Of a DNA stretch of 12,825 nucleotides, positions 249 through 12,825 are shown piece after piece. The position numbers and the translations under genes are program-made. Under the pieces are notes generated by a model that saw only the letters and a list, made by a program, of their open reading frames with translations, was not told where the DNA came from and did no database searches. How positions within the stretch are numbered: the stretch's first letter is position 1; the number at the start of each line of letters is the position of its first letter. The DNA comes from a virus (taxonomy: Duplodnaviria > Heunggongvirae > Uroviricota > Caudoviricetes), in IMG/VR virus record IMGVR_UViG_2690316345_000017; one strand, given 5' to 3'.

Positions 249-7325
<7,077 letters not shown>

Positions 7326-7514
7326 GCTTACCTTCCCTGAACGAGCTAACATAAATGCGCCCTTTCTAGCACAGCGAAAAAATGTAAATACTGATAGCAA
7401 TATGATTGAAAATTAATAACTTTTCGTTAGGCAGTTTTGGGTGTGAGTTGCAAGAGGGGAGACTACTGAATAACTCAAGTTTTATAATCGAGGGGAAAAT
7501 GGTGATGGCGTTCA

Positions 7515-7638: not shown

Positions 7639-7714
7639 TGGCTCCTCTGACTGGACTCGAACCAGTGACATACGGATTAACAGTCCGCCGTTCTACCGAC
7701 TGAACTACAGAGGA
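7639..7714 (-). tRNA. asnT: tRNA-Asn (anticodon GUU)
   Basis: Reverse complement of 7639..7714 is TCCTCTGTAGTTCAGTCGGTAGAACGGCGGACTGTTAATCCGTATGTCACTGGTTCGAGTCCAGTCAGAGGAGCCA, 76 nt with encoded CCA, which I recognise as canonical E. coli tRNA-Asn. Anticodon loop CUGUUAA. The symbol asnT is assigned from its position between mtfA and yeeJ. Confidence 0.96.
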
Positions 7715-7814: not shown

Positions 7815-8612
7815 TTAATGAACATTCGTCGCCGAAAACGAGTCTGTATCATTAGCGTGATGCAGTCTCTGCAAAGGATCTTGTTGATAAAATTGGCAGA
7901 AACGTTGCCACAATGAAGGGAAACGAGGAGCAAAAAGTTCTGGGGCGCTAAAGAAATATTCAGAAAGTACGGCAAAACATTCAGCAGGATCGCTGGCTGC
8001 ATAAGCATCAATGCTCGCCGCATTCTCGCCAACCAATTCGATTTCTTCCTGAATGTTGTTCATTGCAGCATGAAGATCGTGTTCCCAGCCAGCAACCTCA
8101 CGCAACGGAATAAAGGGAACTCCGCTGGCGCGATCGCCGTTACGGGTGTCCAGCTTATGAGCGACTTCATGAATAATCAGGTTAAAACCAGAAGCATCAA
8201 AAGAATCTTGTATATCCAACCAGTTCAAAACGATAGGCCCTTGCTGCCAGCTCTGACCTGACTGAACAATACGTTGGTTATGCACCAGACCGATATCGTC
8301 TTCCCATTCATCATCGACCACAAATGGCGCAGGATAAATTAAGACTTCATGAAAACCATCCAGCCATTCCAGTCCTAACTCCAGAACGGGTAGGCAAAAT
8401 AGAAGTGCTATCCGGCAGCTTCTTAATGAATCCAGTTCAAAGCCCTGTAAAGGAACAAGCCGCTTTTGCTGTAAAAAACGTTCGGCAAGAGTGACTAATT
8501 TGCTTTGTTCCTGTTCCGTCAGACACGTTAAAAGGGGGATCGATAGTGCTTCCTGCCAGGGAAGGGCAGTTTGATGTGCTGATTCTTGTACTTTCCAGGG
8601 CCACTTAATCAT
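7815..8612 (-). CDS. mtfA: Mlc titration factor A; HEXXH zinc-dependent peptidase-like protein
   Basis: The track ORF starts at a GTG (8651). The ATG at 8610-8612 gives 265 aa beginning [28 protein letters not shown], matching my recollection of E. coli MtfA. It contains the HEVAH metallopeptidase motif. Confidence 0.92.
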
Positions 8613-8661
8613 CGTTTTGCTCGCAAACTCGTCACTTGAACAAAATTGCACGGACAGGGAC

Positions 8662-8705: not shown

Positions 8706-8795
8706 GGAGAGATGCCGGAGCGGCTGAACGGACCGGTCTCGAAAACCGGAGTGGGGGCAACTCCACCGGGGGTTCAAATCCCCCTCTCTCCGCCA
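8706..8795 (+). tRNA. serU: tRNA-Ser (anticodon CGA), class II tRNA with long variable arm
   Basis: GGAGAGATGCCGGAGCGGCTGAACGGACCGGTCTCGAAAACCGGAGTGGGGGCAACTCCACCGGGGGTTCAAATCCCCCTCTCTCCGCCA, 90 nt. The 7-bp acceptor stem pairs perfectly, discriminator G, encoded CCA. Anticodon loop CUCGAAA gives anticodon CGA. Divergent from mtfA, as I recall for serU in E. coli. Confidence 0.96.
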
Positions 8796-8840
8796 AAATT
8801 CAATCACTTACACATCATTAAGTCAGTGACAAAAATCACA

Positions 8841-8877
8841 CTTGGAATTACTTGGAATATTTTCTTGGAATATTTTC
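8841..8877 (+). repeat. Tandem direct repeats (CTTGGAAT x3; 13-bp unit CTTGGAATATTTT x2) at the int 3' end; candidate integrase arm-type (P') sites
   Basis: CTTGGAATTA (8841-8850), then CTTGGAATATTTT (8851-8863) and CTTGGAATATTTT (8864-8876). They sit 46-82 bp from the tRNA 3' end and overlap the last int codons (NIPRKYSK) and stop. This is where P' arm sites are expected in an attL. Confidence 0.45.
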
Positions 8878-9873
8878 AGGTAACGGGACATCAAGTGTTG
8901 GTGAAACTTTAACCTTCCTGTCATAGATTAGCACTTGCCCTTCGGTTTTGTGACCAGAGAAAAGTTGCTTATCCCGGCTGCTTCCTTCATAGTCTGAAAT
9001 TCCTTTCGCCTTCAGATCATGAAAGGTGAAGTCGGTTAAAATACCTGAAATTTTTCCAGCACGATTTCTTGCATCTACCCACATTTCGTTAAAGCCTTTG
9101 TACATATATCGGTTGCCGTATTGATTGCTGATCACATAGGCAGATTTTGGTAACTGTTTTGCTTTTTCGATCGCTGCCTGTAATCGTGGACTCCATGCTT
9201 TTATCTGTTTTTTTCCGGTTTTCCCTTGCTGGATGAATATCCCGTCGTTTCCAATCTGTTCCCATTTCAGCGATAACACATCGGAAACCCTCGCTGCACA
9301 CAGATAGGCAATTTCCATTGCGATAAAAACAGGAAGAGGTGCAACGCTTAATACTGCCTGGTATTCTTTGTCGGTTACATATCGTTCGCGGTTTTTGGCC
9401 TTGAATTTACTTACACCTGCACATGGGTTAGCCTTCACGTACCCTCGCTCATACCCCCAACTGTAAACACGGGACATACTGCTTTTTTCATGGTTGGCTT
9501 GCGTTTTACTCTGCTCCCCTCTTTTGTCCATGTATCGACGGATGTGTTCTGGTTTTATGGAATCCGCTGGTACCTTACCGAATACGGCAAGCAACTTTTT
9601 TTGATGTTGCAGATAATCTTTTTGTGTTCTTGGACTAAGGTCACTGTAATAGGCGCTGGCGAGGAATTTTTCCCACAAGCGACCGAATGTCATTGCACGA
9701 TCGCGATTATTTACAGTTTCCTCATACTTTTTCCATAAAGCAGCTAAACCATCCTTGATGGCGGTTAGTGTGACAGATTCTCTGGATGTTGGTTTCCATA
9801 CATAACTATATTTATTTGGGTATACATTTGGAGGTAATTTTTCGTGTTCAGGATTTTTCCTTCGTCTTCCCAT
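8848..9873 (-). CDS. int: Phage integrase, tyrosine recombinase of the lambda Int family
   Basis: 341 aa. N-terminus MGRRRKNPEHEKLPPNVY resembles lambda Int (MGRRRSHERRDLPPNLY). Box I AARVSDVLSLKW, QQGKTGKK (lambda K235 region), HDLKAKGISDY (lambda HELRSLSARLY), and GHKTEGQVLIY with the catalytic Tyr. Adjacent to the tRNA 3' end. Confidence 0.95.
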   Translation of the reverse strand: MGRRRKNPEHEKLPPNVYPNKYSYVWKPTSRESVTLTAIKDGLAALWKKYEETVNNRDRAMTFGRLWEKFLASAYYSDLSPRTQKDYLQHQKKLLAVFGKVPADSIKPEHIRRYMDKRGEQSKTQANHEKSSMSRVYSWGYERGYVKANPCAGVSKFKAKNRERYVTDKEYQAVLSVAPLPVFIAMEIAYLCAARVSDVLSLKWEQIGNDGIFIQQGKTGKKQIKAWSPRLQAAIEKAKQLPKSAYVISNQYGNRYMYKGFNEMWVDARNRAGKISGILTDFTFHDLKAKGISDYEGSSRDKQLFSGHKTEGQVLIYDRKVKVSPTLDVPLPENIPRKYSK

Positions 9874-10076
9874 CAGATCGCACCAAAATTCGGCTCTACC
9901 TCGCGTGGTGGTAAAGTTTTATTGCAGGTAAATAGATCCCGGCTGACAATCGGTTTGCCACTACGATTGGTATAGAACGGAAGCCCGTTTTCCATTAACC
10001 ATTTTCGCTGGTGGCTTGCATATTTGCAGCCCGTTAATATTAGCAATTCATCTTCGGTTAAAAATAAGCTGCTCAT
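9873..10076 (-). CDS. xis: Small DUF4224-like protein, putative excisionase / recombination directionality factor
   Basis: 67 aa (MSSLFLTEDELLILTGCKYASHQRKWLMENGLPFYTNRSGKPIVSRDLF...), matching the DUF4224 pattern as I recall it. Its stop overlaps the int start (TGATG at 9871-9875), suggesting translational coupling. Position immediately upstream of int is typical for xis. Confidence 0.65.
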   Translation of the reverse strand: MSSLFLTEDELLILTGCKYASHQRKWLMENGLPFYTNRSGKPIVSRDLFTCNKTLPPREVEPNFGAI

Positions 10077-10093
10077 AGCTATATCTCATAACC

Positions 10094-10119
10094 GCCGCTA
10101 ACTATATACGGTTAGCGGC
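10094..10119. promoter_or_regulatory. Perfect 9-bp inverted repeat GCCGCTAAC-N8-GTTAGCGGC between the exonuclease-like gene and xis
   Basis: Seen directly: GCCGCTAAC (10094-10102), spacer TATATACG, GTTAGCGGC (10111-10119). No flanking U-tract on either strand, so not a typical intrinsic terminator. It ends about 17 nt upstream of the xis start codon. Function unknown (operator, RNA stem-loop or processing site). Confidence 0.35.
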
Positions 10120-10134
10120 AATTAGGGTTGAACA

Positions 10135-12576
10135 TTAAAAATCAGCCTGACTCGGGATCAGTTTTTGCCAGATAGCTGAAACGTATTTTGCCTGGTAACG
10201 AGCGTCATCAAGTGCATTATGGCGCTCACCTTCGAATGGAATAGCCGTTCTGGCATCGAAGTCTATGGCTTTCCCCAGCTCAACGATTGTGCGTACATCG
10301 CGATCGTTGTAGTAACGCCACGGGCAGGGGATCCCCTGCCGTTCGTATGAACGGCGCAAAATCGTGTTGTCGAAGTTGGCTCCATTTCCCCAGACCTGAA
10401 CAAAAAATTCACCGGAGTTTTCGTCGATAAATTCCCGCAATTGTAACAGTGCATCATCTAACGGGATTTCATCGGTCATAATGGCAGATTGCGCTTCGCG
10501 TGATTGCTTAAGCCACCATTTAATGGTGTCCCGATCAATGACTCCGCCAGCAGTTTCCAGATCGATAGTCTTACTAAATTCCGGTCCCATATCTCCGGTT
10601 TGCGGATCGAAAAATATTGCACCTATTGAGATGATCGGGGCATCAGGATTTTTTCCCATGGTTTCAAGGTCGATCATTAGATGGTCACACGTCCTGCTGG
10701 TGGATGTGATTTCGTGATGACCGTTCACCTTAATTGAGCGATCTGCCGTCTCGCCAGTTTTATTATCGCTGGCGTGATGCTGATTGCCGCCAGGGTTCTC
10801 CTTGTGTGGATGTTCAGCGTCTTCCATTTCCTCCGGATCATTTTCCTGAACTTCAACCTGATTCTCTTCATCGAATGTTTCCTGGTATGTTGCGTCGCCC
10901 ATCACCGCGCCACAATCAGGGCAGTTGCCGCCACCGCTCTGACCGCAGGCGGTGCAGACTTTTTCCGGTTCCTGTTGCGCTACTGGTTCGGATTGTTTCG
11001 TTTCTGGCTCGTTTTGTAACGCATTTGGGCTGTTTTGTTCCGCTTTTTGGTCGTTCCGTTCCGATTCATGCTGGTTCTGGTTCACAGAATCGCGAGTCTG
11101 GATCCCCTTGACCCATTTCGGATCATTAGGGTCGCTAATCCCCTCAACAAATTCACCACGCGATACAGCAAGTAACTTATCGGCGTCAGGCTGGCTGATA
11201 TTGGCTGCCTGCATAATTTTGTTTACTTCGTCAGCGGTGACTTTTACTTGGTTAGCGGAACTCACCTGCGACTGAGCATCCAGCGACTGCGCGTTCTGGC
11301 CATGTTCAGTTGTATCCGGTTCCATTGTTTCAGTTGTTGCCTGTTCACCTGCCATTGCGTCAGATGGTTGTGGTTTTTCTTCTTCTGTTTCACGCTCAGT
11401 AACCACCTCGCGGTTAATTTCTTCCAGGATATCTTTTTCCGGCGTATGCCGGGCAGCTGTGAGAGTTTCCTTGCTGGGGTTCTCGTGATCAGTTTCCGTC
11501 AAATAGGCGTTGATATACCCCTGAAGGCGTCCCGGGTAGTGATAAAATTCAGGGTGTGCGCTTCGGATAAGTGCAAAAATAGCGGCGCGGGAATAGTCCA
11601 GAATACCCGGGGTTGCACGAAGTGCTGCGGACCATTCTTTGAACGGACTTTCTTTGTTCAGGACTACTTCTTTTGCGCGACGATAAATGCTGCCCGGAAT
11701 TTCATAAATATTAAAATCCATCGGAAGTGTGGCTGCTGCAATCTCCACATCCAGTGTGTCGAGGGTGTGTACTAAATTCGGATTGCGATCGGTTTTGTTC
11801 CCACCGCCAGCATTAGCACCGGAAGCCGTGCGGGTGATGCGTGAAACACGATTTCCTTTCATCCACTCTTTTGTCAGCAGACCCCGATCAGTGTAGTCAG
11901 CGTCCAGGTATGCTTCGAAAAAAGCAGTTATTAGGCCCAGGTCTGAATTACCAGGATTAGGGAAAACTTTGTCAGTGTCACGAACCAGTTTGTGGAGGTC
12001 GCGAATCTCCAGCGAGTCGAGCAGACTGGTTTTATGCGAAATAGCCAGGGCAGTAACAGCCGGTAGTTCTTCAGCCCGTGCAATGTGTAATGCCTGGAGT
12101 TCGTCGCGTGAAACGTGCGTTACTGGTTTTTCGCTGCCGTGTTGAGCAAGCCAACGAATGGGCAGTTCCTGACCGGAGACAGGCAGAAGCATGCTCTCCT
12201 CAATCTCAGTCATGTCTTCGCCGTTGATGTTGGTATTGTCAGTGCTGGCTGGTTTGTCCTGAACAGAGGGGGAAGGGCCGATAAATGTCATTGTGATGCC
12301 ATCTTTCCCGCCTTTTTCATAGCGGTTGCAGAATTCAGTATCAAACACGCCTTCTGGCGGAAGGTCGTCAACAACGGGCAAATTGACGCGGACGGGTTTT
12401 TTAAAGTCGTCTTCATCATAATCGTTGTCATCCATTGCGGTAATGCAGCGGGAGATTGCAACAGATAATTTTTTTGCTGTAGTCCAGTAAAAACCACCTT
12501 TAATTCCCAGGCGTTTTCTTACTTTGTCATTTTTTGCTTCGCAATATAGTGCAAATTCTTCTTTATCAGTGCTCAT
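10135..12576 (-). CDS. Prophage RecE-like ('exodeoxyribonuclease VIII'-type) protein: RecE N-terminal-like region, acidic linker with CxxC-x7-CxxC zinc ribbon, C-terminal DEDDh (DnaQ-like) 3'-5' exonuclease domain
   Basis: 813 aa, ATG start with GAGG about 10 nt upstream. Residues ~115-400 ([41 protein letters not shown]...) resemble what I recall of the Rac RecE N-terminal region. Residues ~400-625 are acidic/Q-rich low complexity containing [16 protein letters not shown]. The C-terminus carries DEDDh motifs: LMIDLETMG (Exo I), [13 protein letters not shown] (Exo II), HNALDDARY (Exo III). Confidence 0.85.
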
Positions 12577-12669
12577 TATTGGTAAACCTCATCACAGATT
12601 TAAGGGTGAACAAATCTCTGCCATTGCTGACATATAAGAATGAAACTGGATATTTATTACGGTGCTGTT

Positions 12670-12825
12670 TTAAAATCCTGCCGGGATTTCGTTATTATCC
12701 TGGTGAATAACTTTATCGACCGGATAACAGTTGCCTGGAATTTTCTGTTCGGTTGCTGCTGCCATACATTCCTGCATTGTTCTGTGAACACTGACTGCAA
12801 TATCAACTGGCTCTCCGGAAACAAG
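12670..12825 (-). CDS. 3' end of a prophage ORF of unknown function (5' part beyond the window)
   Basis: Minus-strand frame open from the window edge: ...LVSGEPVDIAVSVHRTMQECMAAATEQKIPGNCYPVDKVIHQDNNEIPAGF*, stop at 12670-12672. A second frame is also open to 12657, so the frame is uncertain. Position matches the next gene of the early-left operon. Confidence 0.3.
   Translation of the reverse strand, partial: LVSGEPVDIAVSVHRTMQECMAAATEQKIPGNCYPVDKVIHQDNNEIPAGF

Follow-up and report, generated by a model that had tools for sequence, protein, structure and literature searches.

A lambdoid prophage protein joining a RecE-type N-terminal region to a predicted DEDDh 3'-5' exonuclease domain

RecE of the Rac prophage (K-12 b1350) carries a nuclease head of the PD-(D/E)XK fold (PF12684, PDB 3H4R) that acts in the 5'-3' direction. 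The T4 protein DexA is a 3'-5' DNA exonuclease (PMC12153337), and its E. coli homologue EcD was reported by Kang et al. (2025) to digest 5-hydroxymethylcytosine (5hmC) DNA and to protect against T4, a strategy named 'HREX' (PMC12153337). A 2026 preprint further describes TONDO, a group of ISG20-like DEDDh exonucleases whose auxiliary domains vary and many of which are encoded on prophages or other mobile elements; they defend against RNA phages (PMC13344964). The gene analyzed here occupies positions 10135-12576 on the minus strand of a 12,825-nucleotide stretch of viral DNA (Caudoviricetes; IMG/VR record IMGVR_UViG_2690316345_000017), hereafter called the window, and is a complete ATG-to-TAA coding sequence for a protein of 813 amino acids (aa). 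According to the open reading frame list, the translation and the matches to PF06630 and PF16473, the protein is a mosaic of a RecE-type N-terminal module (N-module), a linker and a C-terminal DEDDh head, which is predicted to act in the 3'-5' direction, opposite to the RecE head.

The head spans aa 632-803 (10168-10683, minus strand) and was matched by the Rv2179c-like profile PF16473 over 176 of 177 profile positions with an E value of 7e-68 (228 bits against a cut-off of 27). The motifs IDLET (635-639), NFDN (734-737) and HNALDD (786-791) supply the predicted catalytic residues D636, E638, D736, H786 and D791. Full-length homologue searches were swamped by near-identical sequences of E. coli and Citrobacter, and diversity was obtained from a search of representative clusters; the resulting alignment held 46-47 homologues, drawn from clusters at 50% identity and 38-53% identical to the head. 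The residues D636, E638, D736 and H786 were invariant in this set, and D791 was conserved in at least 90% of its members. Nei-Gojobori comparisons gave ratios of nonsynonymous to synonymous substitution rates of 0.13-0.18 for the head, which is under purifying selection.

An AlphaFold model of the head, built on the homologue alignment, reached a mean predicted local distance difference test (pLDDT) score of 93.2 and showed the RNase H-like DnaQ fold. Foldseek comparison of this model with the PDB returned T4 DexA as the top match (E value 1.6e-11, template modelling score 0.71-0.74), followed by RNase T, oligoribonuclease and REXO2, with ERI1 also among the strong matches; RecE was missing from the PDB matches. 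When the family profile was searched against the PDB, the sole matches were DexA (8KEL, E value 1.6e-21) and a DnaQ protein (E value 2.7e-5), and no RNase, including Rv2179c, was found among them. As predicted from sequence and model, the head is thus a DEDDh exonuclease of the DexA/EcD/Rv2179c-like family with its five-residue active site intact.

The N-module is folded and covers aa 1-397 (11386-12576, minus strand), with pLDDT values above 90 in the full-length model for aa 4-100, 120-250 and 259-397. It includes the PF06630 (Exonuc_VIII) match at aa 57-189 (12010-12408; E value 3.8e-36). The NCBIfam exodeoxyribonuclease VIII equivalog NF007259 matched aa 1-615 through profile positions 1-602 of 877 only, and the score of 939 bits lies below the cut-off of 1269 bits, which places the protein outside the RecE equivalog. 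In a BLASTP comparison with K-12 RecE, aa 58-615 aligned to RecE 50-591 at 58% identity, and the similarity ended there. The alignment ends at RecE residue 591, which puts the junction no more than about 30 residues from where the nuclease domain of RecE begins; PF12684 (PDDEXK-like) was located at aa 615-850 of K-12 RecE and gave no match in the 813-aa protein. A profile search of the PDB with the N-module returned only the RecE nuclease, which came from RecE-type rows of the alignment, and a low-complexity match to TBP. As judged from these alignments, the N-module and the N-terminal region of RecE are one and the same.

The initial annotation, made from the sequence letters, had proposed precisely this combination of a RecE-like N-terminal region and C-terminal DEDDh motifs (DLE, FDN and HNALDD). 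Both halves were borne out: the motifs are all present, profile searches placed the RecE/Exonuc_VIII family in front and the Rv2179c-like family at the C-terminus, the model of the C-terminal domain resembles DexA, RNase T and oligoribonuclease (Orn) and not the PD-(D/E)XK fold of RecE, and the acidic residues are invariant or nearly so among the homologues.

The two folded parts are connected by an acidic, Q/N/E-rich and largely disordered linker at aa 398-625 (10702-11385, minus strand), which has a net charge of -31 and in which pLDDT values below 50 predict disorder for aa 397-463, 487-538 and 559-624. This linker is common to the 813-aa protein, RecE and the YdfE-type exonucleases; from aa 451 on, its nucleotide identity to phage Tritos is 93-98%. 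It contains a CxxC-x7-CxxC putative zinc ribbon, seen in the sequence at aa 541-556 (10909-10956, minus strand), which was matched weakly by the Pfam DZR profile (E value 0.096) and is kept in K-12 RecE. The Cys4 ribbon was considered as a family-defining feature and rejected, as it occurs in only about 6-7 of 61 aligned family members.

The mosaic structure is also visible at the nucleotide level. Identity to K-12 recE is 90-94% for aa 121-240 and 81% for aa 241-270, falls to the background of about 45% for aa 1-120 and 271-390, ranges from 60 to 88% for aa 391-600 with one block of 47% at aa 511-540, and returns to background after about aa 600. The gene of phage Tritos, on the other hand, is unrelated over aa 1-450 and 92-100% identical over aa 451-813. 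Recombination breakpoints are thus found at the module borders. Among representatives at 50% identity, the N-module was joined to a DEDDh head in about 20 clusters and to a RecE head in about 18, and the RecE-type N-module is therefore portable and found with either nuclease head. The linker and DEDDh head in turn also occur behind the unrelated YdfE-type N-module, and the DEDDh fusion is carried by Citrobacter prophages too.

Three further observations concern related proteins. A cluster representative of 703 aa (P0127) has the PF06630 N-terminal region joined directly to the RecT domain PF03837 (aa 528-678) with no nuclease head, and may have arisen by an in-frame deletion that fused recE with recT. 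In the proteins P0142, P0131 and P0126 of loci L035, L036 and L037, the Exonuc_VIII region and the DEDDh head are separated by a third module, PF27432 'YdfE_C', so that the middle of the family proteins is also combinatorial. Finally, the ydfE pseudogene of the K-12 Qin prophage (L003:6079-6999), truncated by IS2E, encodes 256 aa that are 99% identical to the N-terminus of the 823-aa exonuclease of Tritos (L032:5269-7740), a YdfE-type protein that is intact in phages Tritos and PhiR42_1; because of this identity, ydfE is taken as the stump of a YdfE-type 3'-5' exonuclease gene. The idea that the 813-aa gene itself is the intact form of K-12 ydfE, suggested by the same slot beside ydfD and dicB, was rejected as sequence similarity is absent.

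The genomic context was compared in nine cases: E. coli 042, the phages Tritos, vB_EcoS-640R1, PhiR42_1, PPompW and Evi, and the loci L035 (Citrobacter freundii), L036 (a 4.6-kb contig) and L037/L038, which carry the three divergent fusions P0142, P0131 and P0126. The gene was the last early-left gene before xis and int in 9/9 contexts, in the order repressor, ydfABC, dicF, dicB or kil, ydfD, exonuclease, xis and int. In the window, the gene is followed directly by xis after 58 bp, in agreement with the initial annotation, which had noted no annealing-protein gene between them. The same annotation called for a look beyond the window for recT, bet or erf; none was annotated or detected in the stretches examined in the nine contexts, where unannotated genes were searched no further. 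By comparison, recT was annotated beside recE in seven of the eight recE entries listed, the eighth being flanked by a 'hypothetical protein', and Salmonella phage SPN3UB likewise encodes a RecE-headed protein followed by RecT. The DEDDh-head gene is present in apparently complete genome records of named phages (Tritos, PhiR42_1, Evi and mEp460).

Heads of the same family also occur as standalone proteins of about 180 aa, matched in 766 phage records. In mEp235, genes for Erf, single-stranded DNA-binding protein (SSB) and the standalone exonuclease are followed by a gene for a protein annotated 'anti-RecBCD 2'; in a Vibrio phage the standalone head adjoins SSB; in a Proteus phage a helicase gene immediately precedes it and a primase gene follows about 2 kb further downstream; and in Rhodobacter phage RcAqua a Cas4-family exonuclease lies two genes upstream of it and a DNA polymerase gene is next.

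The DNA encoding the DEDDh head was found in 4048 of 5426 complete E. coli genomes (about 75%), with 8111 occurrences in all and a maximum of 7 in a single genome, and DNA for the K-12-type RecE head in 1730 of the same genomes. The DEDDh-headed protein is therefore commoner in E. coli than canonical RecE, and it is no rare oddity, its two-domain architecture being already on record in RefSeq and Pfam. The labels differ among the sources. RefSeq uses 'exonuclease', '3'-5' exonuclease' and '3'-5' exoribonuclease domain-containing protein', GenBank phage records use 'exodeoxyribonuclease VIII' and 'exonuclease VIII, ds DNA exonuclease', and among the source names some read 'Exodeoxyribonuclease 8' and many "3'-5' exoribonuclease". 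The warning in the initial annotation that 'exonuclease VIII' would be a misleading label was hence justified: thousands of E. coli, Citrobacter and phage genomes contain the protein, which often bears the name of an enzyme that differs from it in fold and has the opposite polarity, and a RecET-like recombination system inferred from that name is wrong for these prophages. In the literature, no description was found of a protein that joins the RecE N-terminus to a DEDDh head.

The reading that we favour, with somewhat better than even confidence, is that this gene, a mosaic in the early-left operon of a lambdoid (Qin/Tritos-like) prophage, encodes a DNA 3'-end exonuclease that is independent of an annealing protein and tethered to a targeting module. 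The head would remove nucleotides from free 3'-OH ends by two-metal-ion hydrolysis, with DNA as the most probable substrate, since T4 DexA and E. coli EcD, the closest relatives that have been tested, both digest DNA. The N-module and linker would bring the head to the target of the RecE N-terminus, presumably DNA ends or replication/recombination intermediates. The protein would act after prophage induction or infection, in the trimming of 3' ends in phage DNA metabolism, and would not be the resection half of a Red/RecET-type annealing pair. This reading is supported by the position of the gene in the slot where lambdoid phages keep exo/bet/gam or recET, and by the standalone homologues inside replication/recombination modules of unrelated phages. 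The domain assignments and their junction, the conserved active site, the modelled fold, the purifying selection on the head, the pairing of the N-module with both kinds of head and the occurrence in apparently complete phage genome records also speak for it.

Several points weigh against it. The Pfam family is named after an exoribonuclease, and an RNA substrate is thus possible. The only in vivo phenotypes reported for the relatives are in defence (EcD against T4; TONDO against MS2 and Qbeta), and no biochemical or genetic test of the protein itself was found in the literature. How the head would be targeted is conjectural, given that even in RecE the N-module has no assigned function (PMC11611040). 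In the PPompW prophages of enterohaemorrhagic E. coli, moreover, the annotation of the exonuclease gene (L043:5269-7736 in PPompW_EH1846) records a frameshift caused by a deletion, and loss of the gene is therefore compatible with prophage survival.

A bolder proposal goes beyond the favoured 3'-end exonuclease reading, and we hold it tentatively, doubting it more than we believe it: the RecE N-terminal region may be a portable targeting module that delivers nucleases of either polarity to the same site, and the DEDDh version would then define a so far unrecognised pathway of lambdoid prophages, in DNA-end processing or in immunity, for which no annealing protein is needed. If this were true, comparison of the two natural head variants would reveal the role of the RecE N-terminus.

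A role in prophage immunity or exclusion is a serious rival, although we regard it as unlikely. The head would destroy nucleic acid of superinfecting phage, with the N-module as an 'auxiliary domain', and would target either modified DNA, as in EcD/HREX, or RNA 3' ends, as in TONDO; such a role is compatible with 3'-end DNA exonuclease activity. A role in exclusion had been raised in the initial annotation, and published precedent for exclusion or defence exists in relatives of the head: the standalone EcD degrades 5hmC DNA and shields E. coli against T4 (PMC12153337), and protection against MS2 and Qbeta is conferred by DEDDh exonucleases whose auxiliary domains vary and many of which lie on prophages or other mobile elements (PMC13344964). 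EcD (GenBank HAK9828821.1) was represented in our comparison by a 189-aa EcD-like protein from IMG/VR viral contigs, found by means of the published primer and carrying Ala78 as stated for EcD, and this protein was 38% identical to the head over 183 aa (E value 1e-37). The retention of the head in 75% of the complete E. coli genomes, some of which hold it in as many as 7 positions, is what would be expected of a trait useful to the lysogen. However, the gene lies in a repressor-controlled early-left operon, which is not the typical position of a lysogen-expressed moron, and standalone homologues are found in replication modules of virulent phages. The residues by which DexA is reported to read 5hmC, W152 and D169, are not conserved in the head, and the Asp that is lost in EcD (DexA D90, tetramer-forming) appears to be kept in the 813-aa protein, as aligned by phmmer in a gapped region. 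Moreover, the protein had no match in PADLOC: 0 families were found at E ≤0.01 in PADLOC-DB v2, a database of 2023 that predates HREX and TONDO. For the third role suggested by the initial annotation besides anti-defence and exclusion, end-joining, nothing was found in the literature.

That the protein is an exoribonuclease, trimming or degrading the 3' ends of host or phage RNA in lytic growth, seems improbable to us. PF16473 is named for the 3'-5' exoribonuclease Rv2179c, many source names agree with it, and RNase T, oligoribonuclease/REXO2 and ERI1 are strong fold matches; yet DEDDh enzymes often cut both DNA and RNA, which makes the family name weak evidence, DexA was the best Foldseek match, and the profile matches in the PDB were DexA and a DnaQ protein only. 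The part to which the head is joined is moreover the N-terminus of a nuclease of DNA recombination, and its standalone homologues neighbour genes for SSB, Erf, helicase and polymerase.

Less probable still is a counter-defence enzyme that removes a 3'-ended signal or effector of host immunity, for example retron msDNA, primed DNA ends or linear oligonucleotide messengers. Early-operon genes beside kil/dicB are often anti-host, the standalone homologue of mEp235 lies directly upstream of the 'anti-RecBCD 2' gene, and the joining of the head to variable N-modules is a pattern also seen in arms-race genes, but no such activity is reported for relatives in the literature found, and the sequence suggests no specific target.

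It is scarcely credible that the protein is an exonuclease VIII equivalent and prepares ends for an annealing protein that the host or another prophage would provide in trans. About 560 aa are shared with RecE and many E. coli genomes also carry Rac recET, but the 5' tails produced by a 3'-5' exonuclease are unsuited to annealing of the RecT/Bet type (Red, RecET). The protein lacks the nuclease domain of RecE (PF12684, about aa 564-866), which is able to replace full-length RecE genetically, it scores below the NF007259 equivalog cut-off, and no single-strand annealing protein gene was found nearby in the nine contexts examined.

The main value of the DEDDh-headed protein lies in a natural experiment on the RecE N-terminus and in a candidate prophage nuclease. 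Through natural head-swapping, the RecE N-terminal region, which enhances linear-linear recombineering, can be studied on variants that already exist. As no Red, RecET or Erf was found in the usual slot of these lambdoid phages, the question of how DNA ends are handled there is raised. Relatives of the head have recently been reported as antiviral, and a very common prophage gene may therefore add to the phage resistance of E. coli.

The remainder of the window is consistent with a prophage end. The exonuclease ATG is preceded at a distance of 10 nt by a GAGG Shine-Dalgarno sequence, read from the sequence at 12587-12590 (minus strand). The next gene downstream encodes an excisionase (DUF4224; 9873-10076, minus strand; PF13986 with an E value of 1.9e-15, PHROG 1266) and is followed by that for the tyrosine integrase of the prophage (8848-9873, minus strand; PF00589 and PF22022). 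Beyond these lies a tRNA-Ser (CGA) gene (8706-8795, plus strand; ARAGORN and the E. coli 042 annotation), which marks the prophage end and is the probable integration site; the window thus carries the left end of a prophage beside tRNA-Ser. The flanking region holds mtfA (7815-8651), a tRNA-Asn gene (7639-7714; ARAGORN) and yeeJ (249-7400, minus strand), which encodes a 2383-aa inverse autotransporter adhesin according to the annotation of near-identical genomes and is unrelated to the exonuclease. Between the stop codon of the exonuclease gene and the start of xis, the 58-bp spacer contains a perfect inverted repeat (10094-10119, minus strand; 9-bp stem and 8-nt loop, GCCGCTAAC-N8-GTTAGCGGC) with no T-run after it. 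An RNA-processing or stability element and a protein-binding site are possibilities for this repeat.

Positions 8800-12825 of the window are 100% identical to prophage sequence of E. coli 042, and the 813-aa protein is 100% identical to the product of the 042 gene EC042_RS31795, labelled 'exonuclease'. The integrase open reading frame of the window encodes 341 aa, and for the identical 042 sequence PGAP gives a 'frameshifted' integrase of 1051 nt (8823-9873) that is 25 nt longer; the large-terminase gene of the 042 prophage is also interrupted. Because of these two annotations, the 042-type prophage copy may be defective. The prophage adjoins tRNA-Ser(CGA) beside mtfA, and the neighbouring tRNA-Asn of 042 carries the yersiniabactin high-pathogenicity island where the window has yeeJ; the two adjacent tRNA genes therefore serve as separate integration sites.

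Compared with the known systems, the protein is closest to RecE in its N-terminal part. The N-region and linker are shared with RecE, with blocks of 90-94% nucleotide identity, and PF06630, the Cys4 ribbon and the early-left slot upstream of xis-int are all in common; the RecE head is PF12684 whereas that of the 813-aa protein is PF16473, and recT lies beside the RecE gene but is not adjacent to the 813-aa gene. The YdfE-type 823-aa exonuclease of Tritos and PhiR42_1 stands in the identical order dicB, ydfD, exonuclease, xis and int, but its first approximately 450 aa are unrelated to the 813-aa protein and PF06630 is absent (Tritos). For the head, T4 DexA (PDB 8KEL/8KEN) belongs to the same DEDDh subfamily, although identity is only about 20-23%. 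DexA residues D7, D119, H186 and D191 align with D636, D736, H786 and D791 of the head, and its second acidic residue ('E12' in the legend of the paper, position 9 by count of the aligned sequence) aligns with E638. The 5hmC-reading residues of DexA are not kept, W152 being replaced by Tyr756 and D169 by Lys768 or Ala769, where the alignment is uncertain, and DexA is a standalone protein of 227 aa with extra loops from a virulent phage, unlike the fused 813-aa protein. EcD is a standalone enterobacterial DEDDh exonuclease, to which the 813-aa protein adds an N-terminal extension of 625 aa; the Trp is retained in EcD and Ala stands in place of DexA D90, whereas the 813-aa protein has Tyr756 at the first of these positions and, as phmmer aligns a gapped region, apparently an Asp at the second. 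Rv2179c of M. tuberculosis, the founder of PF16473, is a standalone chromosomal protein that was characterised on RNA and is remoter from the head than DexA or EcD. TONDO or ISG20-like exonucleases and Cap18 belong to a different DEDDh clade, set apart here by description, and the TONDO study took proteins of less than 500 aa.

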